A DNA stretch of 64,000 nucleotides from a virus: IMG/VR virus record IMGVR_UViG_3300045988_163836; one strand, written 5' to 3'. The notes under the pieces are model-generated. The model had not been told where the DNA came from, did no database searches, and saw nothing but the letters and a program-made list of their open reading frames with translations. Positions within the stretch are counted from its first letter, which is position 1. Every line of letters starts with the position of its first letter. The position numbers and the translations under genes were made by a program. This document shows positions 7,344 through 55,302 of this stretch, in pieces.

Positions 7344-7451
7344 TTATTGACCTCCTTTAACTCTTATTTCTATTTATTTTTAAAAATTATATATTGTAAA
7401 CATACTATTTTGGTCCAAATAAAAAAAAAGAATGATGGATAAAAATCCATC

Positions 7452-10400
7452 ATTCTTCAATATACCAATCACGTAATTTTATATTTTTAGGAGCAATATA
7501 ATCAGATAACTATTGTTTTAAATCAGCATTTGTAGCTATCTCATTTAGCAATTTAGCTACTGTTAAAATATTAGTCACACTTTCTTCTTTTAACTAAATA
7601 GAACCATCAACATTAAAACATAAAGCATCTCCTGCTAATTTTACAACTCCATCAGAACGCAAAATATTGGTAGGAATACCATCTATATCATATTGATATA
7701 ATCCTGAAACAAACCCTGAACTATCTAATTCTTCCGCTGGTTCTTCTTCAGCTTCTAAACTTAATGTCTAAATTTCTAAATCTTTTCCTGGATCTTCGAT
7801 AGGCAAGGTATATTTTCTACGTTTATTTTCCCACAAAGAACCTACATAAGTTTTACCTTCATCTCGCGCCCAAGGCCTACCATGAGAAAACCCTGGATCA
7901 AGAGGCTTTTCAGATTCTACATTATCTTCATCAAGTACGGGTATATTAGTACCATCATTATCTTCATCTGTTATAATAGTAATATCTTTATTATTAAGCA
8001 TTACTATTGGATAAAATAAACTACCTTTATTATCTGGCAAAAAAATCTATAATGCACCCATAGGAACTGTTTTTACTTGGTCAGTGGATTTAGCAAAATA
8101 AGCACCTGGATAATTTTCTTGTGGTCTAAGGTATTGCTATTTTACATTATCAGAATTAGTAGAATTAACTATAATTATATAATCAGTAAGAGACACTGGA
8201 TTAGTAACCTATAATAAATCAATAAATTTTTTACCATCATATTTATACATAAAAGAAATCTATTTATTTATTAAAGAAGGAGTTCCCTTTTCATTATAAG
8301 TAATTTTAGAAGGTATATTAATATTACCAATGCTATTAACTACAAAATTAGTACTAACCATTATAGGCTTGTAATAATATAAAGTCTAATTTGTAATAGC
8401 TTTATTCTCTAACCCTATAGTTACTTTAAATTTTATAAAATACTAACCCTTACAATCTTCAACTGGATTTGAAATTTTAAATACATTTTTTTCTTTATTT
8501 ACTTTTTCACAATCTAAATTGATAGGATCTGCTTCAACAGTTATTTTATATTTATCTGTGACATTACCAACAGCATCCTAATAAGCAGAACCATTTATTA
8601 TTTTATTACCATTATATCTTACTTCTGGCATAAGATAAATCGGTTCATAACCAGACCCACTTTTTTTATTAATAGGTTTAGTATCGAGTTCACTGCCATC
8701 AACATTACAATCTTTAATAATTAATTGATAATCTAAACCACTAACTGTTGAGTCACCTGGTTTAATAAAAACAATACTTTTATTAAACTTAAATTCTTTA
8801 TCAGCTAATGTTATTACTTTTAATGATAAGGTATTATTAGTATAAGTATCTACATATTTAGGTTTAATATAATAATGTAAAGCATTATTAGTTTTATCTA
8901 TCCAAAGCTTTGAAAGCATTGAATTAGTAATTTTAGTAGTAGGATATTCTAAAAGTTCTCCTCCATCAGGTGAATACCAAGTAACACTTTTAACTCCTAT
9001 ATTTTCCTTATCTACGCTAATAGTTGGAGTAATAATTATTTCTTTATTAGCCTAATCTAAAGAAATACTACCATTAACATCATACTAAAAAGTATCTGTT
9101 CCACTAAATACTACTCGCACGGGCGATTCTTGTTTATAAGTAATTAATTTATATTCGCAAGGTACATAATCACCAGTATCTAATTTACTAACACTATAAA
9201 ATATTACATTACCATATTCTAAAAACTAACTTACATCAATCTAACTAACTCCAGTAGATAAAGGTAAATATGATCCATCCATCAAATCAACATACCAATC
9301 AGCTTCATTAATAGTTTCTAATGAATCTACAATAGATAATTTAACTTCATTTTCACTAATAAATTGCGGAATTATAGTAAATCGTTCATTATAATATTTA
9401 ACTACTCTAACATCTTTATATAAAGTAACATTAGAATTATATACTACCACTAATTTATATCGCATCTATTGATATACATCTTTGCCCGAAATAGTTAGTT
9501 CATTAAATCTTACATTAGAACTATCATTAATACATTCCCACCCAGGGCCGCCTATCTAATCATATTTTTCACTACCAGATAGAACTGCCGGATTCTATTT
9601 ATACCAATAACATTTGCAAGTTTTTTCTTCTAATATATTTTTATTAGCATAATAAAAAACGCCTATTAATTTTATTTTATCGGTATCTTGAATTAATGAT
9701 AAACCCTATGGCGCGCTAATACCTACATAATATAAATCTTTAGTAGAATCTTGGACATCAACAAAACTAAGTTTTATATTTTTGACAAAAAGATTAGGTT
9801 CTTTATTATAAACCGCAGTTATCTCACCTTTACCGTTAAAAACAGTATCATATCTTAAAAATCTTTCTTGAAAAAATGTAATTTTTTTTATGCCAATTAA
9901 ATTAATTCCAGTTAAATCATAAATTACATACTATGGTGAAAATACTTCATAATCGTAAATACTACCAGAGAAATTTATAATATCTAATCTACGACTAAAA
10001 ACAATACCTGTATCTTTTTCTACAAAATCAATTTTTAATCCATAATTACCAGCCATCATTGTTCCATAAAACTATGTTCTAAAATCGGCCTAAATCATAA
10101 TACGAGGATAAGTAGTTAATAAACTGGTAAAAATTACATCTTCAGTGAGATTATCATTTTCATAAATTACCTATTCATAATATTTACTTTTATCTTCTTC
10201 CTCTTCTATCGGTTCTTTACTATCTTCAGCCTAAGTATCAGTTGCAGTACCTTCTTTTGTATCATTTGATGAATTATCTTTATCATCTTTTGGAGTTTCT
10301 TCTTCTTCCTTTTTAGGTTCTGGGGCATAAGCTAAGATACCATATTCATTACCATTGCTATATATTTCACTTATTTCAACTACTTGCTAAGATAAATCGC

Positions 10401-10746: not shown

Positions 10747-10802
10747 ATTAACTCCTTTCTCTCCTCAAAAATGAGGAGGAAATTAATCCTCCTCATTTAG
10801 AT

Positions 10803-16800: not shown

Positions 16801-19800
16801 ATAATTTATCAACAGCACTTTGGTCTATCCAAATTTCACCAGTATCTTTCTTGCCCCAAGCACCTTCCATATTCTTTAGCTCAGGATAAGTATTTAAAAT
16901 ATTAAGAGCTTCTTCATTAGCTTTAGTTAACTATGCACGCCATTCTTTAGTACCAACAGTACATTCATCTAAAGCAGATTTAACAGAGCTATAACTATCA
17001 AATACTGATTTTAACTATTCAGCTTTATTTTTTGTTTCTTCTAACTAACTTTTAAAACTCTCAACAGCCTATTCAGAACGTTTAATTTGTTCTTCTATAG
17101 TAAAAGACTAAGCTGTATTATATACTTTAACCAATACAGCAATGGCAGCAACTACTGCTCCAATTATTAAAGCATATTTACCCAAAACAAGTAAAGATTT
17201 AGTAAACATTGCATGAGTCGCTGCACCACTAGCTGCCAATTGCTATTCAGCAGTTCCCGCAGAACCAGCAGCTACTCCCAATTCTTTAAGCTTGGCGGTA
17301 TAAGCATCAAGACCAGTTTGCATAATTTTAGCTCTAAATCCAGAGCTATTCTCTATCTTTGTCTTTAAAGCTGCCTATAAGTCAGAACCCTATAAAGACC
17401 CTCCTAAACCAGTCATTATTGATAAAATATTAGTACCTAGTCCCTTCCAATTAGTTCCAATTTCTTTTAATCCACTAGCTAACTAATTTACTCCATTGAT
17501 TAAAGAAGGAATAGCAAAACTTGCCGAAGTAATGCTCTAAGTTAATTTTTCTCCAAAATCTAATTCGCTATTATTTAAAGTATTAAACATTCCTTTTAAA
17601 CTATTGATTCCAATAGCTAATTGAGAAATACCCTAAAAACTAGAAACTAATCCTTGAGAAAAACTATATATAGATCCTTGACTAGCTTTTAATTCTGCGT
17701 TAAAAGCTTCAATAGCACTCTCATATTTTTCAACCGCTCCTTTGTTCTACAAAAGAGCCTCTTTCTCATTTACGTAATCTGTAAGACACTATCTTAAAGC
17801 ATTAGACTAAGCTTTTGTTAATTTTTCTGCTTTAATTTTCTAATTAACATAATTATCAATTTCAAGATTAACGTCTCTTAAATTATTAACTTCAGCTAAT
17901 ATATCTTTTCTAAGAGTACCTTTAGCACCATTACTTAGATTAGAATTGTTACCCTATTGAATTAACTAATTTAATTTACTATATCTTTGATTATTTAAAT
18001 CTAATTGACCAAATTGAGAAATAAAATCTTTAAAAGAACCATTTGAATTAATTTTTAAAGACTTTAAATCTTGCATTGTTTTATCATTATAAAAATTATC
18101 AACAATCTTTTGGCCTTTTTTTAAGTTATTGTCAAAATAAATTACGCCCTTATCTCCACCAAATTTTTTATTATTATCTTCAAAAATTGTATTGCGAGCA
18201 TTACGTAAATTGTTATTACTCTAAGTTTGTTGAGCTTCTATGCTTTTTTTAGATTCTATAGCTATTTGTCCATAAGCCTAAGAAATTTTTAATAATGTCT
18301 ATAATCTTAATTTATCTGTTTCATTTAACTAATTATTTGCTAGCTATAAATCATAAGAAGCCTCTGCAGCTTTAACCATTGTAGTTGTTTCTAATTCAAC
18401 TGAACCCTATTTTGTTAAATCAGGTTTTTCTTCATAAGTTGTAAAGGTCTTTAAAACATTTATCATCTACTGCTTCATAACCGCAGCCTAATTTTCAGCA
18501 GCTCCGCTGTCAATAAACAAATTGGAAGCCATACGCTGCATATTATTTACAATATCAGGACCGAAGCTTTTTAGCATTAAAGTAGAAATAACACTTAATA
18601 CACCAGGCAATCCGCCTAATGAATCAATCAATTTGCTTGTAATATTTAATGTATCACTTAATGTATCATTTAATCCGATAAAAAATTTATCACTAACTAA
18701 TTGCTTATAAATTTCTTCAAGAGAAGCTTGTACTCGCTTTTTAGAAGCTTCCCAACTTTCAGCATAAATATCAGCTTGTTCTTGTAAAGTACCTTCAGAA
18801 TTTTTAGCCACTCCAACTAGCTCTTTAAAATAATCTTTATTCTCCATAAGATTAACTAATTGAGTGTATTGACGAACACCACCAACAGTCTATGCAAGAG
18901 CCACTTGTTCAGCACGACTTAAACTATCCCACTTATTCATCATTTCATCAAGGATAGTATTCATATCTTTTAACTCACCCTATTGATCTTTAATACTAAT
19001 ACCAACTTTTTCAAGGGCTTTAGAATATTTATTTAAATCAGTACCATCTTCAAGAGTTTCTCCAAGAGTCAGACCCTAAATACGTGCAAATAAGGTTTTA
19101 AGGCTATTACCTACTGTATTCGCACTTTCACGTGTTTTGGCAGTTAATGTAGCTAATGCAGATGTAGCATATTCATAACTAAGACCAATAGTATTAGCAA
19201 CAGAAGCGAATTTCTATATACCTTCTGAAATTTCATCAGTACTAGAAGCAGTATATGCACCAAGTTTAGTCATTACATCTGCATAATATTCAAGAGATTT
19301 GCTACCATCATAGAAGTTATTCCAAACAGCAGTTAACTAATCAGATACTTTAGAAGCACTTTCGCCTGCGGCGTTAGCCATTTTAATAGTAACTTCAGTA
19401 CGATCAGCAACTTCTTTATCACTTAAACCCTATTGATAATAAATTAAAGAAGCATTAGTATAATTAGTAGTAGTTGTACTTAATGCTTGAGCAGCCTTAT
19501 TAGCTTTTTCAGCAAACTCAGCCATCTAATCATTACTCTATCCAGTAACTATACGAATATCATTTAATGATCTATTTAAATCTTCTGCATAATAGTAAGC
19601 TTTCTATAAAGAACCCTATACTCCATGCATTAAGTTAGATGAAATTTGCCATTTGGCTGTATTAGCTAATGTCTTTTTAAAATTATCTAATATAGCGTTA
19701 GTTCTTTTTAAAGGAACTTCAGCATTAATAACAGACTATGCTAATGCAACAAATGCTTTATCACCTGTTGGGCCTAGATTCTCTAAGTGTGTAGCAAAAT

Positions 19801-20095
19801 CCTAAAGAGTATAACCACTCTAGCTTAAACTCTTTGAAAATTTTGATAAATCTAAACGCCCAGTATTAACATTAGTCGCCTAATCTAAAGCAATTTTTAA
19901 CTCCTAAACTGCTGCCGAGGCTTCATCTATTTCTTTTTTAGTGGCATTAACATCAAAAAATTTAATATTTTTTGTTGCTATCTAATTCATTAAAGTATCT
20001 AATGAACTTTGTAAATCTCGTAATTGCTATTTAGCTTGACCTGTATCAGCTGTAAATCGCATATTAACATTATAATTAGCACTGTTATTAGCCAT
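10803..20095 (-). CDS. Tail tape measure protein of about 3100 aa. It is heavily TAG-recoded, with many dozens of in-frame TAGs and no internal TAA/TGA in my reading.
   Basis: ATG at about 20093-20095 after AAAGGAG. The frame is continuous to a TAA at about 10803. It is coiled-coil rich and has a poly-Gly (G8) tract encoded at about 13700-13740. Track fragments 11561..11917, 13529..13906, 14084..14284, 15086..15307, 16076..16327 and 18488..18847 are all in this frame. Its position after the chaperone-like gene and before the distal tail genes fits a tape measure protein. Confidence 0.7.
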
Positions 20096-20139
20096 AAAAT
20101 AGCTCCTTTCTCTCATTATAAATTTCTATATATATAAAG

Positions 20140-20172
20140 AAAAGGCGAGAGGAACAAAGCCTCTCGCCTTTT
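20140..20172 (-). terminator. Hairpin (attenuator/terminator) between the chaperone-like gene and the tape measure gene.
   Basis: aaaggcgagagg ... cctctcgcctttt. Confidence 0.4.
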
Positions 20173-20209
20173 AATATTCCTATTTAAATTAGAAATTAAT
20201 TATAATATT

Positions 20210-20736
20210 TTAACCCATCTTGGTTAAAATATCTTTTACTAAAGATAGACTCTCAGGATTAGAAATCTTATCTTGCAGTTCATTAACATCTAAGTTTAAA
20301 TTAGAATAATTCTGATTCATAGCATCCATAATTCCATAAATACTATTATGATATTTATAATATCCATTAAGTGTTTCATAAGTATAGACTTCTAAATCAT
20401 CAGTTTGATTACAATCTACTTGCTTCTTCAATTCTTTCATAAACCCTGATCCAACAAGTAAATCATAAAGTTTATACAAATCTTCTTTTTGCTTATCAGT
20501 AAAAGATAAATTTGTATAATTAAATACTATTGCTAAATCCATATACATATGGAAAGCAAATTCATTCAAAAATTCATTATTAAAATCAATGACTTGTTGA
20601 ATGACCAACTAAGCAATATCCATTCTTTCCTTAATAGACAAATACTGCTTTACTTCAATAGATTGCTCATTAAAACTCCATTCTTTTACCTAAGAGTTTT
20701 TTTGAAGTGTAAGCTTGGAAAATGCCAATTTTGCCA
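20210..20736 (-). CDS. Tail assembly chaperone-like protein, about 175 aa, placed directly upstream of the tape measure gene.
   Basis: ATG at 20734-20736 with RBS AGGAGG. There are two in-frame TAGs. Track ORF 20210..20608 is the C-terminal part. The assignment is by position only. Confidence 0.35.
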
Positions 20737-20815
20737 TTACCTCGCCTCCTTCTTTATTATATTTTAAAAAAATTACCTAGGTAAATTTTTTAATTTTCAT
20801 TATCTTACAAATATA

Positions 20816-20844
20816 TTATAACAAAAAAATTTTTCAAAGTCAAA
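20816..20844 (-). promoter_or_regulatory. Sigma70-like promoter upstream of the chaperone/tape-measure genes. A near-identical copy of the 37226-37254 promoter.
   Basis: The minus strand reads ttgactttgaaaaatttttttgttataat. It lies just downstream of the TAA at 20851. Confidence 0.5.
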
Positions 20845-20850
20845 AAAATT

Positions 20851-22170
20851 TTACTAATCCTCAAAAATTTTTTCAAAATTCATACTAATAGGACTATATA
20901 AAGCTTGTTCCATGGACATTCTTCTTTTATCATTTTCTAAAATACTTTTAGATCCCTATTTTTTATTAAAATATAAATTCATTTCTATATCTTTTGCCAA
21001 TTTAGCTGTTGATAAAACTTTTAAGAATCCTTCTTTTTTAGGATTATTAATAACTAAAAATTTAGTACGACCAATATCATTAATAAAATTTGCCATTACA
21101 TTCTAATAAGCATACTTAGTATCTCCAACTCTTTGCTTAGCCCCTGTTAATTCATAAATAGCTCTAATTCTAAAAAACATTTTAGGTACATCATTATGCT
21201 CGGCCATTTTAGAATGCCTTGCCATACAATTTAACATACGAGCATATCTATATAACTTATAACTTGTATCTCCATCGGCTACGGTTAAAAAAACACGATA
21301 AGGATTAGTATGGCCTAAACCTATAAAACTATTTGATAAATAGTTTTTATCACTAAAAGTAGCTAATGATAAAGCATTAACTACTCGTTCTAACATTGTT
21401 GCGGTAGCTGTTATTGAAATATTATAATTTAATCCTGTATTATCAGCTTTTATCTATTTACTCTAAATAGCACCGACTTTACCATTTTCTTTAATTTGAG
21501 TATAAATAGTAACAGCTTTTAAATTATTTTTTTGACGTTCTGTTGTAGTATTACCTGAATCTTTTTTTTCCTGCCCAATTTTATAAGCTAGCCTAGAGAA
21601 ATAATTTATGGCAGTTTTTGTTGCACTATCTATGGCTCCATCACCAGCATTAATAATTAAATTTTTCATATTAATACTATCAACTAACTGACCAGAACGA
21701 TGTGTTTGAGGTAAAGGACCATAAGGCATTTCTATATTCTAAAAAGCATAGTCAATAGTAGTAATAAATTCATTCATAAAATTTTCTAATAAAGCACCAC
21801 GTTCAGAACTATTAGCTCCTTTTTTCACCAATCCTCCATTAGTAAATAAATTAGGATTTACCATATATAACTAATTAAATAATTCGGCTAAAGCCTAATC
21901 CTAAACTATTTTTACTAAAGACTCGGTAGTGAAAGACATTTTTTTACTATAATTATTTTGTATCTATTTAATTCCATTTAAAACTTCTTCTAATAATTTA
22001 GCGTCCTGAACTTCTTTATTAGTAATCATATCATTTGGTCGAGCTGCTGCTCTATATGTTTCCAAAAGACTATTTAAATAAGTAGGAGTATTTACTTCAT
22101 TTTTATATGAAACTCCCTTTTGTTTATAATAAACTAACTAATTTTTCTAGGCATTTGTTAATTTTGCCAT
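20851..22170 (-). CDS. Hypothetical tail protein of about 439 aa (TAG-recoded).
   Basis: ATG at 22168-22170 after AAAGGAG. The frame runs through about 10 TAGs to a TAA at 20851-20853. Track fragments 21463..21729 and 21103..21396 are in this frame. Confidence 0.4.
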
Positions 22171-22198: not shown

Positions 22199-22232
22199 AA
22201 AAAAGGAGAGGGATTAACCCTCTCCTTTAATA
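22199..22232 (-). terminator. Rho-independent terminator after the major tail protein gene.
   Basis: The minus strand reads aaggagagggttaatccctctcctt followed by a T-run. Confidence 0.55.
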
Positions 22233-22380: not shown

Positions 22381-23466
22381 TTAAATATCAAAATAGCTGT
22401 CGTGCATCGGATCATGGATAGTTTGAGTACGATAGACACTATCATTGTCAATATCTTCAATGATCTGAATTGCAGCAAGTACTTTCTTAGTAGGATTGAA
22501 ACGAGTAGTTCCTGGGAAAGCATCAAGCGTGAAAGTGAAAGTCGCAGGATCGCCAGTCGCGGCCATGCTGAAAGTAAAGTTAGACTGAATCTTGCAGTTA
22601 GGGATTATAAATTCTGCTGGAAGATCAACGCCGTCTTGAGTACGGAATAGAGTAGAAGCTTCAAGATAGAAGTTGCCACCAAAAGATTCAGCAGTAATTT
22701 CAATTTGACGAGTCTTGCTGGCTTTCTCAATATAATAATCAAGAAGAACAACAGAGCCTTCAAAGAGTTCTAACTTATGTTCTGCCCCGGCTTCAGTTTC
22801 ATCGACGATTTTGTAAGTAGAAGTGATTTCCTTAATTTGAAGACCATAATAAATCTAAGTACCAGCTTTGGCTTTAGTATCAGCTTCTTCATCAGTGCAG
22901 GTCTTATACTTCATTTCAGTTTCATCAAAATAGAACTTTTGAGGTTTTGTTGGTGCCTCTGTCTAACGAATAACTGTAGGAAGATAAGGTTCAGTTACTG
23001 GCTCATCATTGTCAACTCGCATAGCATAAATATAGAATTCACCCTTATGCGCACCAGTAGTAGTATCAACTTGTTCATATGGTAAGTTCTTAACAAAAAT
23101 TTGTACACTCTTTTTATCTTCAGAGAGAGCGACAGCAGTTGTTTTTTCAGTTACATGCTGTTTAATCGTATTCTGCTTCGAAGCATCAATAAGACCTGCT
23201 CCAGCAAGAATCATGAAACCTTCAGCAGAAATAAGAGCATCTTCCATAGTGAATGTTAAAGTACGGTCGCCATCCCAAGCTACTAAACGAGCATTGCCGC
23301 GTCCGCCTTGTGCATATACGGTCGTAGAAGCACCTTCAAGGCTAGAAGTTTTTAATGTATCAAAATAAAGAACTGGTTCGTTCGCATAGAAAACTTTATT
23401 ACCAACCTTCATAGGAGCACGAGCTTTTAATACGACATCGCATATCTCACGAACACCAAATTTCAT
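22381..23466 (-). CDS. Major tail protein candidate, about 361 aa. It has only two in-frame TAGs and is GC-richer than its neighbours.
   Basis: ATG at 23464-23466 after AAGGAGG. Track ORFs 22963..23466 and 22381..22566 join through TAGs. A strong terminator hairpin (about 22199-22232) follows. Its position upstream of the chaperone and tape measure genes, its low TAG count and its higher GC suggest a highly expressed structural gene. Confidence 0.5.
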
Positions 23467-23540
23467 AGGTTATTTCCTCCTTAATAAAATTTAAATTTTA
23501 TTTATATAACTCGCTACAAAAATTAGTAAAGCGATTTATA

Positions 23541-27430: not shown

Positions 27431-27466
27431 TAAAAATATTATATATTAATTTTTAGTTAATATCAA

Positions 27467-28603
27467 TTACGGCTTATCTTCATTACCGCCATCAATAGTA
27501 TCATGAGAACCAGTAATCTGACCAGCATAGTCACGGACCTTACCAGTTACGCCATCAAGATGCCATGTCTTCATATCACCAAGAAGTTCAGTATCACAAT
27601 AGCAGCAGATGTTATTAGCTAACATAGCAATAACGCCGACTTTCTTATAAACCTGAATTTCACGGCTACGATCATAATTGGTATATTCATCAACAATGGT
27701 ATTGCCTTCCATAGCAACCTTTACAGGCTTACTATCAGCACCAGTAGGAATAATCCAAGCATAACCTGGGTCAATGACTTTCTTTTCATTAGTAGCATCT
27801 TCAAAGCCCTGTTCAAGAATAACTACTTTATAGCCCTTATAGGAAGCAAGACGGCCAGTATTCCAAAGCTCATTTTTCATAGCTTCAGTATAACGCCAAG
27901 CATCCTTCGGAATCATACGAACAGCAAATTCATAAGTGCAATAAATAGTAGGAGTACCATAAGCAGAAGCAATCATAAGTAACTTATCAAAGCCGGGTTC
28001 ATCAAAACCATTAGCAACTAAACGGTTAGCAGGAGGTAACTGGTTAACAGAAGCCTTTAAAGCACCGGCAATTTCTTTATAGATAAGTTCATCCATACCT
28101 TCCATGACGATCTGAGTGACAACACCAAAATCGACACGGCCATCAAGGAATTCCTCAAATCCAATTTGAGTAGCTCCGCCGATAGCGCTTGTACGGACTT
28201 CAAAACTTTCTTCAGTCTTACCAAGCTTGAATACTTCATAGATACCAGCTAGGCCGACACGAGTGATAAATTGCTTTGCACGAGTATTGTTGCTGAACTT
28301 TCTACGGAAAATAGGCTTGTCACCCTGTTTAAACGTCTTAACTTCAGCAAACTGATTATATTGCTCTTCAACTTTCTTAGGAAGAACTTCATCAATAGTT
28401 TCCTCAATCATTGAGAAAATAAGGTTCTTATTATCACGATATAAAGAATAAGTTCCAGCAAGTTCATTTAATTCTCTGCGGAGAGTTTCATTAAGAGCAT
28501 CATAAGAAAGGCTTTCGCCATTAAAGCTGTAAGCAGTAGGAGTAGAAGGATCAGCCTTAGCGACAGTCTTCATTAATTGAACAAGATTTTTTCTATCTAA
28601 CAT
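27467..28603 (-). CDS. Major capsid protein candidate, 378 aa, with no in-frame TAG.
   Basis: An intact 378-aa ORF in the track. It sits between a scaffold-like gene and the connector genes. It is GC-richer and is followed by a strong terminator hairpin at about 27395-27430. Confidence 0.55.
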   Translation of the reverse strand: MLDRKNLVQLMKTVAKADPSTPTAYSFNGESLSYDALNETLRRELNELAGTYSLYRDNKNLIFSMIEETIDEVLPKKVEEQYNQFAEVKTFKQGDKPIFRRKFSNNTRAKQFITRVGLAGIYEVFKLGKTEESFEVRTSAIGGATQIGFEEFLDGRVDFGVVTQIVMEGMDELIYKEIAGALKASVNQLPPANRLVANGFDEPGFDKLLMIASAYGTPTIYCTYEFAVRMIPKDAWRYTEAMKNELWNTGRLASYKGYKVVILEQGFEDATNEKKVIDPGYAWIIPTGADSKPVKVAMEGNTIVDEYTNYDRSREIQVYKKVGVIAMLANNICCYCDTELLGDMKTWHLDGVTGKVRDYAGQITGSHDTIDGGNEDKP

Positions 28604-28620
28604 TTTTCTTCTCTCCTTTC

Positions 28621-29397
28621 TTACGCGATTCGCATAATCTTAACGCCCTTCTGATGATCAGGCATTTCATAAACCTTGACAACCTACCATTGGATAGAGC
28701 CATCACCAGATTTAGAAAGCATACCATCAGCAGCACGAGGACTTAAAACATCGCCAACTGCAAGAGTAGCTTCGGCAATAGTATTAGTCGTAAAAATATC
28801 ACCAACATTGGTCTTGAAAACACGAGGAACCATATTAGTGCCAGCAGGCATTCTACGAGCCTCATAAGGACCATCAAAATGTAAAGGATCTTCTTCATAG
28901 AAGAGTTCACGAATATCAGGACCAGCAGTAACATCATCATACTCATAAGTATGTTGTACACCCTGACTATCTGTAATAGTCATAGAAGTATTACCTTCGG
29001 CATCCTTGCCGTTTAAATAGCGAGCCTGACGTGTACCAATTTCCTGCTTGCCATCATAGGGGCTGTAATAACGAGCCTGATAATCGTCTTTGCGCATAGC
29101 AAATTCGCAATCAGCTTGTTCCTCACGATAAAGTTTAATTTCATTATAAACTAACATCCATTCGCCCTTGCCAGTGAAATCAACTTCACCAAGGTCACCA
29201 GCAGCATAGTCATACTTAACAAACTGGCCATTTTCAAGAAGCTGGATATTTTTGTTAGCAGGTAATTGAGCGTAAATCTGACCAGTGCGCTGAGCACTTA
29301 AATGATTAGGCTCAACCTGACCATAGCCATATTCAACGTAGCCGCCCTTAACAGCAGATACGCCGCTTAGGTCTTTAAGCATATCTTTTAAAAGCAT
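28621..29397 (-). CDS. Capsid-associated or decoration protein candidate, about 258 aa.
   Basis: Track ORF 28684..29397 plus a single TAG read-through to a TAA at 28621. It lies between the scaffold-like gene and the capsid gene. Confidence 0.4.
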
Positions 29398-29445
29398 TAG
29401 GTTTTCCTCCTTAAAAATTTATTATTCCATAGTTTTCGCAACATC

Positions 29446-33059: not shown

Positions 33060-33147
33060 ATATTAAGTCTCCTTTCTTATCTACAAATAAATTCCTCTTA
33101 TTATTCTTTTAAAAATTAATTTAAAAGAATAATAAGAGTTGCCCGGC

Positions 33148-34899
33148 TTAATTCATAAACATCCAATCAGCAGCCCGGAATTTTTTCTTCTTTTTATCTT
33201 CTTCTACTTTTTTTATATAATATAATCCATACTCTAATGCAGAGAATTTATCTTTTTTAATACTTTTATTAGCTTGTTTTAAAATTATATTTAAACCTTC
33301 ATTTTCTTCACGCAGATTCATAATCTCTTCACGCAATGAAGTAGTTAAACTGAATGGTCTTAAATAATCAGATCGCGCTTCTGTGGTCATATTCTAGCCC
33401 ACTTTAGTAGTTAATAATTTCTATTTAGCAGTTCGTTCATCAATTAAAAATTTAATCTTACCAGAATTTAATACTGACTAAGTAATACTATGGGCTTCAG
33501 TATTAATTGGTGCATTAGCTTTCATTAAATATAAAACATCTAATTCTGTACTATTAGTTTTATATTTTTTATATTCTTGAACTGCATCATCCTGAGTTCC
33601 ACCATAAACTCCAAAATCAGGAATTACTTCAGAAGTTTCAGGATTAATCTATGGCTTAACCATAAAATCTACTAAACCAACACCAAGTCCATTAGCATCT
33701 ATTACAATTCTGCGAGCTTTATATTTATAATATAATTTTTTAAGTTTAATAGCCTAATCTTCAAAGTGTGTATCATTCATAGTATAAATATTAACTAAAC
33801 TTTTAATTGGCTCACCATGCGGTTGCGGCGTTACTTTAAATACACAAACAACAGTATCGCATCCTTTACGGCCTACGTCAACACTTAATATATAATAAGA
33901 TAATTTACTTGAACGGCCAGAAGCTTCGTATTCAGGCTAATTCAGTATTCTATTTCTATTAAATATTTCTGCATTAAAGAAAGCGTCTTCAACAGTACCA
34001 GACCAAATTGATTCATATTCACGTTCGAAAGAAGCTTCATTATAAGTTCCTTCATTTTTTTGGTCAGTAATAAATGTTTTCTGTTGTAATCCAACAGCAA
34101 CAGGAGTTCGCCAAGTTCCACCTAATACCATACATCTATCAGGCTATGTAATCATACGAACTAATAAACCAATTAATCTATCATAAGGATAAGTATTTTT
34201 ATAGCCAGCAGTAGTAATATAAATCTATGATTTATTTACCGCTTCTTCTTCATGAGTTGTACCATCCTTAGCTCTACGAGGAATAGCCATAACTGGTATA
34301 ATGACTTCGCGTAAAATCTAATCATCAATACCTACACATTCTTCCATTAGACCACCATGACGACGCTGACCACGAGTACTTTCTCTCGCAGCTAAATTAT
34401 CAAGGACAGAACCATTCTTAAATACATAACGTACTTTATCTTTACTCTCTTGGCTCTTACCTCGGCCCCAATCAATTTCGCGTTTAAAACTTGGTATTAA
34501 ATCACAAATTTCATTAACTTTATCATGTAGAATACTCGCGCCTTGTTCCTTACCACCCGAAGTAACAAATAAATGAACACCAGGATAAAGAATACATCTA
34601 ACCATTAATGCCATAACTGATAAGAATGATTTAGAATAGGCACGAGGGAAAACTGCATAAACGTACTGATAGCGCATTACACATCTTAAAAAAACACGCT
34701 AATAGAAGAAAAATTTAAATTCTCCTTCTTTCTATTCTGTACGTGTTCCTCGTACTAAAAAATCAACAAATAAATCTGGATATTCGCGCCAAAAGGCAGT
34801 ATATTTACGAATGACTGGCATTACGGCATTAATACGTTCTTCAGAAAGACCTATTTTTTTCCTACTTGTAGATAGGTCAAGTAAATCTTGTAACGCCAT
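33148..34899 (-). CDS. terL: Terminase large subunit of about 583 aa (TAG-recoded).
   Basis: ATG at 34897-34899. The N-terminal ATPase-region fragment is track 34318..34677. The C-terminal nuclease-like region has 'YILSVDVGRKGCDT', 'RIVIDANGLGVG' and 'EREYESIWSG' (tracks 33937..34131 and 33148..33390). About 9 in-frame TAGs. Ends at a TAA at 33148. Confidence 0.75.
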
Positions 34900-36065
34900 T
34901 AATCTTCCCTATCAGAGAAAGCATCTATATCTAACTCTGTTTCATTATCTAAAAATTCACTAAAGTCTTCAATATCTTTATCTTCTAAAGTTTTTTCAAT
35001 GTCTTCAATAGACATATCAACATCATCAACAATTGTATCTTCGACGTTTTCTTTAGCCTATTCATCTTCTTTAGCGTTTTGTTTTAATGCCTAATCAATC
35101 ATATTGCCAAGATTAGTTTCTCGTTCAATTAAAGTGCGTGTATATTTTTGCATATCTTTAATTGTAAAATCTACTTTATCATTTGGAGTATCAATGTAAT
35201 ATCTTTCGATATAACCTTGTTTCTCACACATTTCTATTAATTCACCAACAGAATCAATGAAATCGCCAGACTCTTCTTTATTCTATGCGGCAGTAAATTT
35301 GCCTGATTTCATTAAAGAATCATACATTTTAATCATCTTTTGAGCGCCGTCTACATCACCTATATCTAATAACTAATTAGATTTTAATGATGTCTTACAG
35401 GCAAGTTTTAATGTATCAATATGGCCTGCTGACTAAATATCGTAAGACTACATCATTTCATTAAATAATTGCTCTAAGCGTACCCATTCATCAGGGCTAT
35501 AACCTTTTCCCCATTTTAAATAAAGGTATCGTTTATCTTCGTCTGTTAGCTCCGCGCCCAAATCAGGAACCTCAAAATCTAATTTATCTTTAAAATAATC
35601 TTCTGCAGAATTTCCAAAATCTAGGGGAGGAGGGGCAGGAGGAGGCGGCTCTTTTAATTCTTCTGATGGCAAAGCAAATGAAGCACGTTGAATAGCCGTA
35701 GTAATATCTTGAACATCATATCCCTATTGCTTCATTGTTTCTTCTATTTTTTTATTTTGTAAGTCTTGCAAGAATTGACTATCTTTCCATCTATAATCTT
35801 TCCATTGATTTAATTTCATTGCAGAGAGATAGCGACCTAATATTGTCATTCCAGTGACTTTCGCTCTATCCTTCGCAAATTTACCCATTAACTAATTCCA
35901 CTAATCAGGAATGTAAGGAACATCACATTCTTGCAATATCCATAGATAAGTATCCGGATTCCAATTATCTACATGCATTGTTATACATTTTTTACATTTT
36001 GGTAATTTACCATCATTAGGATATTTATCTAAATTATTAGATGTATAAAACTAAGTTCCATCCAT
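34897..36065 (-). CDS. Hypothetical DNA-packaging-associated protein of about 389 aa (small-terminase candidate). It has an N-terminal Cys cluster (KCKKC), a proline-rich tract and an acidic C-terminus.
   Basis: ATG at about 36063-36065. About 9 in-frame TAGs. Its TAA overlaps the TerL ATG (taATGg). Upstream it is bounded by a TGA at 36114-36116, which shows that TGA is a real stop here. Confidence 0.35.
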
Positions 36066-36131
36066 AGTTTTATTACATTTTTCACAGTAATATTGTTTAC
36101 CTTCGCTGGACAATCAATATTTCTCCTTTCT

Positions 36132-36818
36132 TTAGGATTTCATTTTTTCTTTACGAGAACTATTTCGGCATTTTTTGCATATACTATAAAATCCATCTTT
36201 ACTTGTTTTATTATAGGAAAAATATTTATTGTGAGCCAATTTAATTTGCCCACATCTACTGCATTTTTTATACTTACCTTTTTCTTGAGTTGTATAATAC
36301 CATTCTAAATATTTATCAACAGCTTTATCAGCAATAAGCTTTGGTATTTTATTGCGGAATAAACTTGATATATATTCTAAGCTGTGAGTAATATTAAATT
36401 CTTCTTGTAAAATTTTTTGAATCTCTATATTTTGTAATCCATCAATTTTACATTCTACAATGCGCATTAACATAGGATAATCAGCCAAGGCTTCATCGCA
36501 AATATTTTCAAAATCATAAATAAGATACCAAGTATCATCTTCAAAACGATCCCAACTATCTTCTTTTAATCGAGAATAATTACATAAGATACAAGAGCAA
36601 ATTTCAGGATTCATCAATGAGATTCCTTCTGGAATTGGATATCCATCATCATCAAATACTTTTACGTCTTCATCTAATTTAATTTTATACTTAGATCGTG
36701 TAAGCTTTACTGGTACTATTGGTTTTCGATAAGCATTTTTAATAATATATTGGTCTTTGCGCATTTCTATTAATGCCTTTTTTATAGTGAAAGCATCTTT
36801 ACCACTTACTACTTTCAT
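36132..36818 (-). CDS. Zinc-ribbon protein of 228 aa, a candidate late-gene regulator. It has no TAG and is readable in the standard code.
   Basis: Intact track ORF with a GGGAAG RBS before the ATG at 36816-36818. It carries a C-terminal CxxC...CxxC and an internal CxC..C. It is the first long gene of the minus-strand operon and contains no TAG in 228 codons. Confidence 0.45.
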   Translation of the reverse strand: MKVVSGKDAFTIKKALIEMRKDQYIIKNAYRKPIVPVKLTRSKYKIKLDEDVKVFDDDGYPIPEGISLMNPEICSCILCNYSRLKEDSWDRFEDDTWYLIYDFENICDEALADYPMLMRIVECKIDGLQNIEIQKILQEEFNITHSLEYISSLFRNKIPKLIADKAVDKYLEWYYTTQEKGKYKKCSRCGQIKLAHNKYFSYNKTSKDGFYSICKKCRNSSRKEKMKS

Positions 36819-36905
36819 TTTTGCTTCCCAAGTTGTAATAGCGTCTTTTAATTGTTTTAAGCTAGGAATTTCTTCTAAATCTTTTTTTGTAATTGTAACT
36901 TTTGG

Positions 36906-37190
36906 CTAAAATATCATATTTTTATCACTATTAATTAAATTATATATACCATCTTCACCATTCTCTAACTGGGAAACAAGTCCTTCGAAAGAAGTTTCAC
37001 GTTTATTAACTGTCATTAATCTATTATCAGTTAATATTTTCTTTTCTTTTTTTTCTTGTTTCTCCATACATAGAATTAAATAATCTGCGAGGATTTCTAA
37101 ATACTTTTCATTAGGATTTGGATTTTCCTCTAAAATTTTTTTTACTAATTCATTTCGTTCTTCAGGAGTTTCAAGAGTATAATCTAATTT
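36906..37190 (-). CDS. Small protein of about 94 aa with a TTG start after GGAGG. It terminates at TAG, assuming the standard code.
   Basis: Track ORF 36906..37253. RBS GGAGG with 8 nt of spacing to a TTG at about 37188-37190. It ends at the TAG at 36906-36908. If TAG were sense it would fuse in frame with 36132..36818. Confidence 0.35.
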   Translation of the reverse strand, partial: KLDYTLETPEERNELVKKILEENPNPNEKYLEILADYLILCMEKQEKKEKKILTDNRLMTVNKRETSFEGLVSQLENGEDGIYNLINSDKNMIF

Positions 37191-37225
37191 TATCAAGATT
37201 AATACCTCCAATCCTTCTAAAAAAA

Positions 37226-37254
37226 TTATAACACAAAAAATTTGCAAAGTCAAC
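37226..37254 (-). promoter_or_regulatory. Sigma70-like promoter for the minus-strand regulatory/late operon (TTGACT-17-TATAAT with a TG extension).
   Basis: The minus strand reads ttgactttgcaaattttttgtgttataat. It is almost identical to the promoter at 20816-20844. Confidence 0.55.
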
Positions 37255-37307: not shown

Positions 37308-37336
37308 TTGACAATTATAAAAATTTTTTATATAAT
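37308..37336 (+). promoter_or_regulatory. Plus-strand early promoter (TTGACA-17-TATAAT) in the divergent intergenic region.
   Basis: ttgacaattataaaaattttttatataat, followed by AAAGGAG and an ATG at 37366. Confidence 0.55.
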
Positions 37337-38112: not shown

Positions 38113-38313
38113 ATGCTGAAAACAGCTTATACAAGAAAACTCGATACAGTTGGACGTTTAATGATTCCCTCTAAACTTCGTGAAGAATTGCATATGGTAA
38201 ATGGTCATAATTATGAATTTTATATTGACGAAGTAGATGGTAAAACTTTTTTATGTATTGAATGTCCTGAAGCCAGTGATGCCGTAGCTCTTGCAAAAGA
38301 AACGTTAGAATAG
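38113..38313 (+). CDS. AbrB/MazE/SpoVT-family (swapped-hairpin) DNA-binding regulator, 66 aa. It ends in TAG.
   Basis: The N-terminus 'RKLDTVGRLMIPSKLREEL' matches the AbrB-type beta-barrel motif. RBS AAAGGAG. The stop codon is TAG at 38311-38313. A terminator follows at about 38348-38378. Confidence 0.6.
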   Translation: MLKTAYTRKLDTVGRLMIPSKLREELHMVNGHNYEFYIDEVDGKTFLCIECPEASDAVALAKETLE

Positions 38314-38347
38314 AATGGGTATCGAGTAATTAAGGAATAAAATTAAA

Positions 38348-38378
38348 GCGGGAAAATATTTTCCCGCTTATTTTTTTT
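38348..38378 (+). terminator. Rho-independent terminator.
   Basis: gcgggaaaatattttcccgc followed by a T-run. Confidence 0.6.
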
Positions 38379-38656
38379 TATAAAAATTGTTTTCCAAAAT
38401 TGAAATGATTATCGTTTTCCGAAATTGAAAATGAGTTTAGATTATTGTCCCGTTTTTTGAAATTGAAATTGAGTTTAGAAATTATTTTGCCAGGAAAGAC
38501 TTTATTACATTAAATTGAAAAAGTTTTTCACGAAACACTGCCCCCCCACTTCACTTGACTAAAGTGTTAAAGTCTATTGTCTTACTTTACTTGAGTGAAG
38601 TGAGTTAGATACGACTAACCCCCAAAAAAAATATTTCGATTTTTGAAAAAAAATAC

Positions 38657-38690
38657 TTGACAATTCCGTGCATAGGTGCTATTCTATAAT
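38657..38690 (+). promoter_or_regulatory. Early promoter (TTGACA ... TATTCT/TATAAT).
   Basis: ttgacaattccgtgcataggtgctattctataat. The -10 element could be TATTCT at 17 nt spacing or TATAAT at 22 nt. Confidence 0.4.
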
Positions 38691-38767
38691 CAGAAATTGA
38701 CCACGGGACAACGCAAGCAAGGCAAAACGCCAAGCGAAAAAAATTCAAGAAATTTTGAAAAAAGTCC

Positions 38768-38796
38768 TTGACAAGTCGGAAGTCCTATGGTACAAT
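38768..38796 (+). promoter_or_regulatory. Strong early promoter (TTGACA-17-TACAAT with TG extension), followed by a roughly 260-nt T-poor leader.
   Basis: ttgacaagtcggaagtcctatggtacaat. Confidence 0.6.
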
Positions 38797-39056
38797 GAGT
38801 ACAACGAAAGCAAGGGAACACAAACAACGCAAGCCCTTGCAAATGTAGTAGAATGACCGGAAAGAGGCCGAAGCACCGAACGGCGTTGAACCTTGACAAG
38901 TGAATGTAAGCCGAGCGTCTACACCACATAGCGGACGCAATGGTAGAACATGAAAAGTGTGGTGCAAGCCGTAGGGCAGTCCAACGCCTATGGCAGATAG
39001 CAACACGGACAGCTGACAACTAACAGTCAAATAATATGTAAAGGATTGGTAAAATC

Positions 39057-51579: not shown

Positions 51580-51671
51580 GCGAAAAAGAAGTAAGGGGAG
51601 AAAGCTCCCCTTACTTCTCCCAGCTAGTTCTAGCTAGTTCCTAGTAAACAAAATTCTAATAGGACGGTAAA

Positions 51672-52034
51672 ATGTTAATGACCGCTGAAAAGTTGGCAAA
51701 TTCGCTTAAAATTTCCATTGAAGAAGCCAAACAGGTTTTGGAAATGGACAAGCGAATTGATAGGGGCGAAAAGCTGTTTGAGTTGCCGCCGGAGCTTGAA
51801 GCAGGAGCAAAAAAGGCAAGACGTGCCGACCGGAAGAAAGTGGAAAATGTAAGGCGGGAGCGAAAACCTGATGAAGATAAAAGGGAACTAATCCAGTATT
51901 TGGAAAGTTCCTTGGAAGATGCCTACCCCGATTTGGATTTGGGTAATATTACCATTGCAAATCCAGAACGAGAAATGGAATTTACTTACAATGGAATTAA
52001 ATACCGGCTGACCCTGATGCGCCCAAGGAAATAG
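51672..52034 (+). CDS. Hypothetical protein, 120 aa (module copy B, gene 2). It ends in TAG.
   Basis: Track ORF. The stop is TAG at 52032-52034. Reading through would add about 40 aa across two terminator hairpins (52040-52075 and 52118-52160). Confidence 0.5.
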   Translation: MLMTAEKLANSLKISIEEAKQVLEMDKRIDRGEKLFELPPELEAGAKKARRADRKKVENVRRERKPDEDKRELIQYLESSLEDAYPDLDLGNITIANPEREMEFTYNGIKYRLTLMRPRK

Positions 52035-52259
52035 ATGGAAGATGGAAACATCTTCCATCCTTTTTGGAATCATAATTGGAAAATTTTTCCAAGGAAAATA
52101 TTGGAACAGATGGTAATTTCAACCGGTCGCGTACAGTTGACGCGACCGGAATTTTGATTTAATTTGATAATTGTAAATTTTCCGAAAAAAAATTCGGACA
52201 TTTTACGAAAATTGATTTTTCCCGAATTTTATAGTATTATGTAAAAGGAGGTAAAAATT

Positions 52260-52880
52260 ATGAACAAATATGAATTAGCAAAATATATTAATACAACAGT
52301 TGGAATGGTAGAAACCAATTTTCCCTTGCTCTGCTCTAAAAATTTAGCTAAAGGGTATTTAATTACAAAAATTGGTAAAGGTGAAACGGCTGATTATACT
52401 ATTCAAGAAGTAGAACCATAGATATTAGATAAAAAATTTTTTTCTAAAAAACGAGAACTTGATAATTATTCTCATTTATCTGAAGAAGAATTAAAAAATG
52501 AAAAATGGATAACTACTTATTGTTCTAACTTGTACGAAGTATCAGATTTAGGAAGGGTTAGAAAAAAATATGATAAAAAAATTTTATAGGGAACTATAAT
52601 AGATGGATATTAGTATGTAGAATTAGATTATCATAGATATGGAATGAATAGAATTGTATTACAATCTTGGCACCCTAGCCCTGATTTCCAAAATTTGACA
52701 GTAGACCATATTGATGGAAAAAGAGGGAATAATAGGTTATCAAATTTAAGATGGGGAACTAATAAAGAGAATACTGCTTGGATGTTAATGAATAGGAAAG
52801 AAATAACAAAGGAAACAACTCGATTGATAAATTAGTATGGGTATGATGAAGTATTAAAAATACTTCAATTAATTAAATAA
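52260..52880 (+). mobile_element. HNH homing endonuclease gene of about 206 aa. It is intact only if four in-frame TAGs are read as sense. It sits in an AT-rich island.
   Basis: Perfect RBS AAAGGAGGTAAAAATT then ATG. 'YEVSDLGRVRKK' (NUMOD4-like) and 'VDHIDGKRGNNRLSNLRWGTNKEN' (HNH motif). Track ORF 52644..52835 is the C-terminal piece. In-frame TAGs lie at about 52419, 52611, 52632 and 52836. With the standard code only a 53-aa stub is made. Confidence 0.6.
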
Positions 52881-53838: not shown

Positions 53839-54450
53839 TTATTTATATCTAAATGGCTATAATCTACCTGCTATGTTCCCACAAGGTTTATATAATAAAA
53901 TTAACGCAAACTCTATAGTTTTTAAATCAGCAGATGTTATATTTCTATCACATAATAAATCCTCTCCTTTTATAATTGGTTTAAATTCAATATTATCTCT
54001 CTACTCATTTAATAGTTTATATACATATAAACTATTATTATGATTTTTAATATTTCTTTTATGTTCATTCCATCTTTTATTAAAATCAACAGTACTACCT
54101 ATATAAATTAACTATCCATTCCTATATATACCATATACTCCACCATCACATACCTATGATACATTTTTTTTAGACTATCGTTCAAGTAATTTTCGTCTTT
54201 CTTCCTACTATCTTGCAACCATAGCATCAAATTCATCTTTGGTTCCAAACCAATTATAATATTTCTATTTATATGTCCAATAAGGTTTAGTTAATTTTTT
54301 CTAATCATCTACACATATTTCTTTATAATTATCTGGAACTATCATAGCTATATATTCTCTATCTAACCAATCATTATATTTACTAAATGATGATAATGGT
54401 TCTAATGTTCTATAAATATTTAACAAATTCTCACGATTCTATAATTTCAT
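53839..54450 (-). mobile_element. GIY-YIG homing endonuclease gene of about 204 aa. It is intact only if about 9 in-frame TAGs are read as sense. It sits in an AT-rich island.
   Basis: Hand translation gives '...GGVYGIYRNG(Q)LIYIGSTVDFNKRWNEHKRNI...LYVYKLLNE...', the GIY-(10)-YIG..R..H..E module. There is no TAA/TGA until the TAA at 53839-53841. A hairpin terminator (gtaggctaat...tagcctac) lies at about 53796-53822. Confidence 0.55.
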
Positions 54451-54544
54451 ATTAAATTCATAATTTTTCCTTTCAATTTTTGATTTCATTTTTCAATTCA
54501 TTTCTTTGCAACCACAAGGCCAACACCGCCATTCAAGAAAATAC

Positions 54545-54845
54545 CCTGTTTTGTCCTATTGTGGACCGAATGGGACACAATAGGACAAATATGTTATGTT
54601 CGATGTCCTGAATAGGACAAATCGGACAGGACATTTTCTTTCTTCAGCTTTTGTCGCATTTGTCGCATTTGTCCTAAACTAAGTCATTTTGCTAATTTTT
54701 TTAGATTTTTATTTAGTTATGTCGCATTTGTCCTATCGACATTTTAATACTTTCATTTAAAAATAGGACAAAACTCATTTGTCCCATTCAAGACAAATGT
54801 CTGCTTTTGTCTCATTTGTCGCATTTGTCCTATAGGTCCCATTTA
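54545..54845. repeat. Iteron/palindrome array. It is a candidate replication origin, partition site or multi-site operator.
   Basis: Palindrome 1: TTGTCCTATTGTG (54551-54563) with CACAATAGGACAA (54576-54588). Palindrome 2: GATGTCCTG (54602-54610) with CAGGACAT (54627-54634). Direct repeats: TTGTCGCATTTGTCGCATTTGTCCTA (54651-54677), GTCGCATTTGTCCTA (54721-54735), TTTGTCGCATTTGTCCTATAGG (about 54816-54835). Extra TAGGACAAA half-sites are present. Confidence 0.6.
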
Positions 54846-54870
54846 ATATCTTCTATGCTAATTCAAATAT

Positions 54871-55296
54871 CTACGGAGCTTTATAATCTACTCTGTCTAA
54901 TGCTCTGGTACTAATCTTCTAACCAAAAATTTTAAAATAAGCATCAACTGCTTCCTATTTAGTAGGAACTCCATTTTTATCTTTAACAGCTTTTACTATC
55001 GCTTTTTCTACATCTTCTTTATAAATTCTCTACTATGCTCCACCAGCTGCTCCTGCTTCTGCTTTCTATTTACTAACCTCTTTAGACTTATCAATAGTAA
55101 GTTTCATAGACTATAACAGCATCATAATAACTCCATAATCTTTATCATTCTCATCAGGCTCAATACCATACAATCCATAGTTAGTTAATGCACTATATAA
55201 TTTATATTTTAATTCTACATCTTCATTCTATTCAATAGTTTCTCTCATATTAGCCCAGAAGGTAAATTTTTCTTTATTCGGCTTTTCAACTGCCAT
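54871..55296 (-). CDS. Hypothetical protein of about 141 aa (TAG-recoded; five internal TAGs). The lower boundary is uncertain.
   Basis: GGAGGTAATTATTT then the ATG at 55294-55296. If the TAG at 54871-54873 is also read through, the frame stays open into the iteron array as far as a TGA near 54787. Confidence 0.4.
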
Positions 55297-55302
55297 AAAT
55301 AA

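Follow-up and report, generated by a model that had tools for sequence, protein, structure and literature searches.

A recoded gene at the head of the late region

The virus record IMGVR_UViG_3300045988_163836 of the IMG/VR database raises the question of whether its late region is headed by two small genes read in the standard genetic code, or by a single gene in which the stop codon TAG is read as glutamine (Gln), as in genetic code 15. The stretch of DNA that we analysed, hereafter the window, is 64 kb long, and the locus concerned lies at 36132..37196 on its minus strand. An original prediction had proposed two TAG-free, standard-code genes at this place, made before TAG suppression and possibly controlling late transcription or the code switch itself. 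We find instead that 36132..37196(-) is almost certainly one recoded gene whose TAG is decoded as Gln, and that it is a code-15 ortholog of a known family of phage proteins annotated as 'sigma factor', PHROG 5767. We give the explanation as a whole, a recoded PHROG 5767 gene that probably acts as a late transcription factor, a probability of about 85%.

The frame at 36132..37196(-) is open for 355 codons with a sole interruption, the TAG at 36906..36908(-). It comprises 354 codons and a TAA stop (36134..36132), and starts with a TTG (37196..37194) situated 8 nucleotides (nt) 3' of a GGAGG ribosome-binding site (37205..37209), an arrangement that is the same in the relatives L003-L009. The TAG is codon 97 and is read as Gln, the residue found at this place in most homologues. 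It had been correctly noticed before that code 15 would fuse the two open reading frames (ORFs) into one protein of about 350 amino acids (aa); the exact length is 354 aa.

The homologues of this protein are encoded in one piece. The PHROG 5767 profile matches it with E=3.6e-52, residues 31-346 aligning to profile positions 77-392 of 393 and so spanning the TAG. Searches of phage genomes with tblastn returned one-piece alignments of residues 2-348 to single coding sequences (CDSs) of non-recoded phages, with ~41% identity for the Enterococcus phages H1/EF1/EF5/VRE9_1-4 (the CDS of VRE9_3 encodes 339 aa), and with further matches to Brevibacillus phage Sundance and the phiCD211 group. A large protein database holds more than 6000 homologues, of which the top 120 are mostly ~351 aa long and cover 97-99% of the fused query; the top ones read ...IFQPK... 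at the junction, with Q at the position of the TAG. The family is thus known and abundant, with no experimentally characterised member among those found.

The DNA of related phages tells the same story. We examined as DNA the nearest three protein clusters (98%, 86% and 85% identity), as code 11 does not translate them. The 98% identical relatives have the same single TAG in the gene and the 86% relatives have four, codon 97 included, while the 85% relative has a sense Gln codon at 97, yet two TAGs elsewhere in the gene. The sample was then widened to 80 IMG/VR loci of 66-99% identity, whose alignment contains 51 distinct sequences. In this gene, between 1 and 7 in-frame TAGs are present in all recoded loci that have 30 or more Gln codons downstream, and among the recoded relatives they are placed at more than 30 different positions; loci with essentially TAG-free downstream genes have none. 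The recoded relatives (1-7 TAGs) therefore possess single fused ORFs with additional internal TAGs, the very arrangement that the original prediction had named as speaking against its two genes. Alignment column 97 holds Q in 31 of the 51 distinct sequences, TAG in 18, and K and R in one each, and is flanked by the invariant residues I95, F96 and P98. The commonest TAG columns are 97, 115, 149, 255 and 260; sequences that lack a TAG at columns 115, 149 or 260 all have Gln there, and at column 255 this holds for 38 of 40.

Codons 98-126 (36819..36905(-)), which the two-gene arrangement had left as intergenic, are in fact coding. P98, I102, T103, D106, I110, I120 and W123 are invariant in 51/51 sequences, and the ratio of nonsynonymous to synonymous substitution rates (dN/dS) of these codons is 0.09-0.21 against three relatives, similar to that of the flanking segments. 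Since the homologues are single CDSs, the TAG stands at a conserved Gln, and the codons that follow it are constrained, we conclude that the locus is one gene, which we refer to as the sigma-like gene.

Domain composition of the sigma-like protein

The protein is predicted to be a DNA-binding factor that combines a helix-turn-helix (HTH) resembling region 4 of sigma-70 with a zinc ribbon. The HTH, of the sigma-region-4 or LuxR-like kind, covers residues ~221-303 (36288..36536(-)). The C-terminal C4 zinc ribbon (36168..36263(-)) is formed by Cys312, Cys315, Cys340 and Cys343, all four invariant across 70 aligned family members, and residues 301-352 also match the zinc-ribbon parts of the HNH, endonuclease VII and Lar families in PHROG. 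The zinc ribbon earlier noticed in the 228-aa portion is thereby borne out. A structure model of residues 190-354, made from the exact translation of the window, has a mean predicted local distance difference test score (pLDDT) of 92.8 and a predicted template modelling score (pTM) of 0.83, and consists of an HTH domain, then a long helix, then a beta-ribbon bearing the four invariant Cys. At this fold level, the protein has a sigma-70 region 4 helix-turn-helix.

The N-terminal half is poorly modelled yet highly conserved. A full-length AlphaFold2 model was built on P0002, an 80% identical homologue; it has a pLDDT of 75, leaves the conserved segment 54-99 unmodelled, and yields noisy fold matches, those to sigma factors spanning 79-97 residues only. 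Segment 54-99 (36900..37037), which reads ILTDNRxxTVNKRETSFEGLVSQLENGEDGIYNL...IFQPK, is the most conserved N-terminal stretch, with a pLDDT below 50 and the TAG at its end. A conserved segment of such low pLDDT is typical of folding upon a partner, which in this model might be, for example, RNA polymerase or DNA.

The C-terminal zinc ribbon (36168..36263) reads CSRCGQIKLAHNKYFSYNKTSKDGFYSICKKC. A second one is found at the N-terminus of the protein encoded by the next gene (YonG_N / PHROG 3314, see below), where 35970..36100(-) reads CEKCNKTMDGTqFYTSNNLDKYPNDGKLPKCKKC. The two share the pattern C-x2-C ... F/Y-x-x-N ... DG ... C-K-x-C, a sequence likeness which suggests that they are related modules in adjacent genes.

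Promoters, operon layout and a proposed role in late transcription

The sigma-like gene is probably driven by a promoter of the host sigma-A type, TTGACT-N17-TATAAT, in which a TG extends the -10 element (11/12 matches; 37225..37253(-)). This motif is kept in relatives of 85-98% identity despite divergence of the sequence around it. Back to back with it, a perfect promoter TTGACA-N17-TATAAT (37308..37336(+)) serves TAG-free plus-strand genes, so that the divergent promoter postulated earlier is indeed present, in the form of two near-consensus sigma-A-type promoters. The plus-strand ORFs at 37.5-51 kb are mostly without in-frame TAG. On the minus strand, positions 1 to 36113 form a late region densely filled with read-through ORFs, containing 261 in-frame TAGs in 11,760 codons (46% of Gln codons), of which 109 fall in one ORF of 3126 codons. 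Only 18 nt, too short for a promoter or terminator, separate the sigma-like gene from the next one, which encodes the YonG_N / PHROG 3314 protein and carries 10 in-frame TAGs (34899..36113(-)); a YonF-type large terminase gene (33148..34911(-)) lies 3' of it.

Based on its predicted domains and its place, we consider it reasonably probable that the sigma-like protein is a transcription factor for late genes. Host RNA polymerase would transcribe the gene from the near-consensus sigma-A promoter, without any phage factor. The HTH and the zinc ribbon, that is the DNA-binding domains, are encoded beyond the TAG, in the C-terminal half of the protein. In the absence of suppression, translation would yield just an N-terminal fragment of 96 aa without either of them, and full-length synthesis of the late factor probably needs amber suppression; the DNA-binding protein would then accumulate only after the switch to reading TAG as Gln. 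It might next act on host RNA polymerase or on late promoters, as a divergent sigma factor, an activator of the LtrA/RinA type or an antiterminator, and the outcome would be transcription of the packaging and structural genes. As the gene itself depends on the decoding of TAG as Gln, its action comes downstream of the code switch and not upstream of it, and the idea that it controls the switch is abandoned. With the putative late factor placed downstream, the components of the switch must be either among the early genes that are free of TAG or beyond the window.

Several observations weigh against this interpretation. With the exception of the phiCD211 homologue, which has sub-threshold matches to sigma70-ECF (E=0.004) and YlxM (E=0.001), no sigma model of Pfam or NCBIfam matches the protein, four phage homologues or the 70 family members (E<=1), and the same searches gave no RinA or ArpU match. 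Sequence searches of the PDB (phmmer and profile) returned as sole match the HTH of an IS256/Mutator transposase (E=0.004), and a Foldseek search of the full-length model against the PDB returned none. The hhalign comparison with Escherichia coli RpoE is insignificant (probability 0.4%) and aligns only the region-4 segment, and a region-2-like domain was not detected in searches with the sequence and the full-length model, of which the N-terminal half is partly of low confidence and may still harbour a very divergent region 2. The name 'sigma factor' is not established; it reflects a remote region-4-like similarity only. The earlier guess of a sigma-70 region 4 protein or late regulator is supported at the level of fold and synteny, though not by Pfam or NCBIfam sigma matches. 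No tRNA, and hence no suppressor tRNA, is found by ARAGORN within the 64-kb window, so that the decoding agent is not directly seen. No late-promoter motif was found. The late region holds extra sigma-A-type promoters (20843..20815 and 27466..27438), and a dedicated late factor may therefore be unnecessary. Finally, the sigma-like gene is poor in TAG in this lineage, which is compatible with some expression under still-weak suppression.

An Rfam scan of the window gave no match either. As to the decoding agent, an amber suppressor (CTA) may lie outside the window, as IMG/VR contigs of 97-99% identity indicate a genome of probably about 137-157 kb; the 99% identical record IMGVR_UViG_3300029858_000001 has 157.5 kb.

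Density of TAG in the sigma-like gene and its late neighbours

In the window, the sigma-like gene has TAG as 1 of its 10 Gln codons, whereas TAG makes up 46% of those elsewhere in the operon (binomial P=0.019). Similarly low values are found in three other late genes, 27467..28639(-) with 0/11, 28621..29418(-) with 1/15 and 22381..23469(-) with 2/14 Gln codons. The original statement that all downstream genes are heavily recoded thus describes the operon on the whole, and not these three genes. Across 33 distinct recoded relatives, TAG makes up a share of 0.24 of the Gln codons in the sigma-like gene versus 0.28 in the next 10 kb. TAG avoidance is real in this lineage but weak, and is not a property of the family. 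As the TAG density of the family resembles that of its late neighbours, there is no family-level signal of synthesis before suppression, and we regard the sigma-like gene as an ordinary recoded member of the late set, rather than as an early gene made before the switch.

The TAGs could conceivably be more than a by-product of recoding, namely a translational gate kept by selection. The gene would be transcribed early from the host promoter yet give an inactive N-terminal fragment for as long as the suppressor is missing, which would couple late transcription to the code switch. This possibility, which we hold to be rather unlikely, is in line with the general model put forward by Borges et al. 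(bioRxiv 10.1101/2021.08.26.457843), and would agree with the conservation of the sigma-A promoter and with the presence of at least one TAG in the gene of every recoded relative with enough downstream sequence. In addition, the sigma-like gene is the most TAG-rich of the block in the L080 and L088 clades: it has 4 TAGs in the L080 clade versus 7 in the following 3000 codons, and in L088 TAG accounts for 7/18 of its Gln codons. Such enrichment, in the lightly recoded L080 clade and also in L088, is a weak hint of selection. Yet the positions of the TAGs are not conserved, with more than 30 in use and a sense Gln at codon 97 in the 85% relative, and their mean share equals that of the late neighbours. 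About three TAGs are expected per gene, so that the absence of genes with zero TAGs is unremarkable. All of this is explained by neutral drift from CAG to TAG in a gene translated under suppression, and we find that variable positions and average density favour drift over a selected gate.

In the lightly recoded relatives L080-L086 (e.g. IMGVR_UViG_3300032167_000002) and L063/L065/L066, TAG accounts for ~5-6% of the Gln codons over the first 10 kb of late genes; recoding may be at an early stage in these lineages, or may have preferentially affected the sigma-like gene. In L080, L063 and L088, the genes at positions (roughly 16000-20900) matching the three TAG-poor late genes of the window also have 0 TAG. 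The three genes (27467..28639, 28621..29418 and 22381..23469) probably encode the most highly expressed head proteins. If so, this would suggest selection against TAG where the demand on translation is highest.

A simple sigma factor or activator is also not the only way in which the sigma-like protein might serve late transcription. Besides the two further sigma-A-type promoters (20815..20843(-) and 27438..27466(-)), the late region has intrinsic-terminator-like hairpins between its genes, on the coding strand (33095..33138, 22202..22228, 20140..20172, 10776..10794 and 7427..7458, all (-)), and the late operon is thus more than one simple unit. Because of these internal promoters and hairpins, an antiterminator role is a live alternative to that of a sigma factor or activator: a processive, Q-like antiterminator would load onto the RNA polymerase of the host at the sigma-A promoter and let it pass the terminators of the 37-kb late region. 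We deem this doubtful. One of the internal late promoters has the same TTGACT-17-TG-TATAAT form as the promoter at the head of the operon. A word shared by two intergenic gaps, TTTTGTAG, was considered as a late promoter and rejected for lack of enrichment (8 occurrences against 4.7 expected).

The two standard-code open reading frames

With regard to the two standard-code genes, of 96 aa up to the TAG and of 228 aa from the ATG at 36818, made before suppression and controlling the code switch or late transcription, we consider their existence very improbable. Both ORFs do exist and are TAG-free. The 228-aa piece (36132..36818(-), ATG start) is present in the ORF list, and the upstream ORF, in the same frame, ends at 36906 and is separated from it by the single TAG at 36906..36908, all as originally described. 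The two genes could also draw on the host-type promoter upstream, on the low count of TAG in this gene (1 of 10 Gln codons against 46%), and on a weak GGGAAG placed 5 nt ahead of the ATG. The start signals of both, however, were misjudged. The TTG listed for the upstream ORF, at 37253, is the -35 hexamer of the promoter; the start given as 37190 (94 aa) is 6 nt off, as the TTG backed by GGAGG is that at 37196, and the first piece is 96 aa long, the TAG being codon 97. The supposed ribosome-binding site GGGAAG of the second gene is made of the codons Trp123-Glu124, and its supposed ATG (36816..36818(-)) is Met127, a start that is not conserved: this position is Leu in 41/51 distinct relatives and Met in 7. 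Above all, the homologues are single proteins aligned through the junction, the TAG column is Gln in 31/51 relatives, the 29 codons between the ORFs are highly conserved (dN/dS 0.09-0.21), and relatives have up to 7 TAGs spread over both halves. The locus is thus an annotation trap, in which a reading in the standard code splits a recoded gene into two plausible small genes with apparent start signals.

That the TAG, which is one transition away from CAG, would be a nonsense mutation or sequencing error in a pseudogene can be dismissed for practical purposes, since six or more independent contigs of 97-99% identity share this TAG (L003, L004, L010-L013/L016), 564 sequences belong to the nearest protein cluster, P0001, the codons after the TAG are under purifying selection, and in-frame TAGs occur throughout the operon.

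Other features of the window

An ORF of 66 aa of the AbrB/MraZ type (SpoVT-AbrB-like; 38113..38313(+)), which matches PHROG 4681 with E=1.5e-7, adjoins the divergent promoter region. Its stop in the standard code is a TAG, and code 15 adds 9 codons. A strong bidirectional terminator hairpin (38346..38369) lies 3' of it. This ORF is a better candidate for an early regulator than the sigma-like gene.

The adjoining region 38380..39056(+) is poor in ORFs and higher in GC, with repeated GAAATTGAAA-TGAGTTTAGA-like units at ~38390-38480. It comprises two strong sigma-A-type promoters, both with a TG (38657..38685(+) and 38768..38796(+)), which are followed by an untranslated leader of ~260 nt up to the ORF at 39057. 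No Rfam match was found for 38380..39056(+), which might serve as an operator or encode a regulatory RNA.

Outside the main late operon, TAG-rich ORFs are also found in the early region, which is otherwise free of TAG, at its far end: 53839..54492(-) with 10 TAGs, 54775..55302(-) with 9, 52245..52880(+) with 4 and 51660..52157(+) with 2. In the same part, the plus-strand ORF 51672..52034 ends at a TAG and may be read through.

Comparison with known systems

Decoding of TAG as Gln is known from the code-15 phages of the gut (Borges et al., bioRxiv 10.1101/2021.08.26.457843; Peters et al. 2022, PMC9523058; phAss-1, PMC10607447), and the window shares their layout, with early genes in the standard code and late, structural and packaging genes full of TAGs that align with Gln. 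The code-15 siphophage phAss-1, which is part of the phage collection searched and has a tape measure protein of similar size, matches neither the DNA of the window nor the sigma-like protein, and phage genomes gave no match in a megablast search with 20 kb of the window.

The late activators of Gram-positive phages known as Ltr proteins (RinA, ArpU, LtrA 'Sigma70_r4', LtrB and LtrC) are needed for activation of the operon for morphogenesis and lysis (Quiles-Puchalt et al. 2013, PMC3753634). As here, their genes lie directly upstream of the packaging genes, and LtrA likewise resembles sigma region 4 only (PMC3753634). The protein described here differs from them in its length of 354 aa, in having a zinc ribbon and a sizeable additional N-terminal half, and in being encoded in the same orientation as the next gene over a gap of 18 nt. 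The Ltr sequence families consist of small basic proteins; searched for such families, the 354-aa protein gave no match at E<=1 in NCBIfam, where RinA and ArpU families would be included, and no relevant Pfam match.

A correspondence is also found with the phages that encode PHROG 5767 proteins, where the sigma-like gene heads the packaging and structural operon in a very large family of big Firmicutes siphophages, such as the EF1/H1-like phages of Enterococcus, Brevibacillus Sundance, Geobacillus E3 and Clostridium difficile phiCD211. The members concerned are Sundance gp013, Geobacillus virus E3 GP4, Clostridium phage phiCD211 PHICD211_20175 and the proteins of Enterococcus EF1/H1/VRE9_x. 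They share with the protein of the window homology over the full length (41% identity for Enterococcus, 28% for Sundance), the C-terminal HTH and C4 zinc ribbon, and the position at the head of a YonG/YonF packaging-structural operon. In Enterococcus phage VRE9_3, the sigma-like gene is followed by PhoH, PHROG 3314 and the packaging genes; in Sundance and E3 an HU-like protein and then PhoH come after the sigma-like gene, an order which in Sundance continues with YonK ... YonG and the YonF terminase; in phiCD211 an HU-like protein follows and the terminase lies further on. Unlike in these named phages, the gene described here has an in-frame TAG read as Gln, in a phage of code-15 type, and genes for HU and PhoH are missing between the sigma-like and YonG-like genes of the window.

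The same slot is occupied differently in SPbeta and its relatives, where YonO is the single-subunit RNA polymerase of the late genes (Forrest et al. 2017, PMC5467207). In the Spbetavirus phi3Ts, the block consists of YonO, a hypothetical gene, HBsu, YonK...YonG and YonF. YonO thus stands, like the sigma-like gene, upstream of HU, YonK...YonG and YonF, with a role in late transcription being implied for the sigma-like gene. The two have no homology, YonO being an RNA polymerase whereas the protein of the window is a predicted DNA-binding factor that would need the RNA polymerase of the host. A tblastn search for YonO in the 64-kb window gave no match. Among phage records, 25 with a PHROG 5767 homologue and 40 with a YonO homologue show zero overlap, and both groups share a YonF-type terminase. 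The PHROG 5767 family thus shares its syntenic position with YonO, the RNA polymerase of SPbeta-like phages, and is mutually exclusive with it. Occupying the same slot and never found together, the PHROG 5767 gene and yonO look like a non-orthologous replacement of the late-transcription device. From the slot shared with YonO and the mutual exclusion, we infer that the sigma-like protein acts in late transcription via host RNA polymerase. It is tempting to speculate, as a distinctly tentative extension, that PHROG 5767 would be a separate class of late factors, made of an N-terminal domain, a sigma-4-like HTH and a zinc ribbon, which would be the counterpart of YonO working with host RNA polymerase, the TAGs of the gene in code-15 lineages making late transcription depend on amber suppression and so serving as a translational checkpoint on top of the transcriptional switch.

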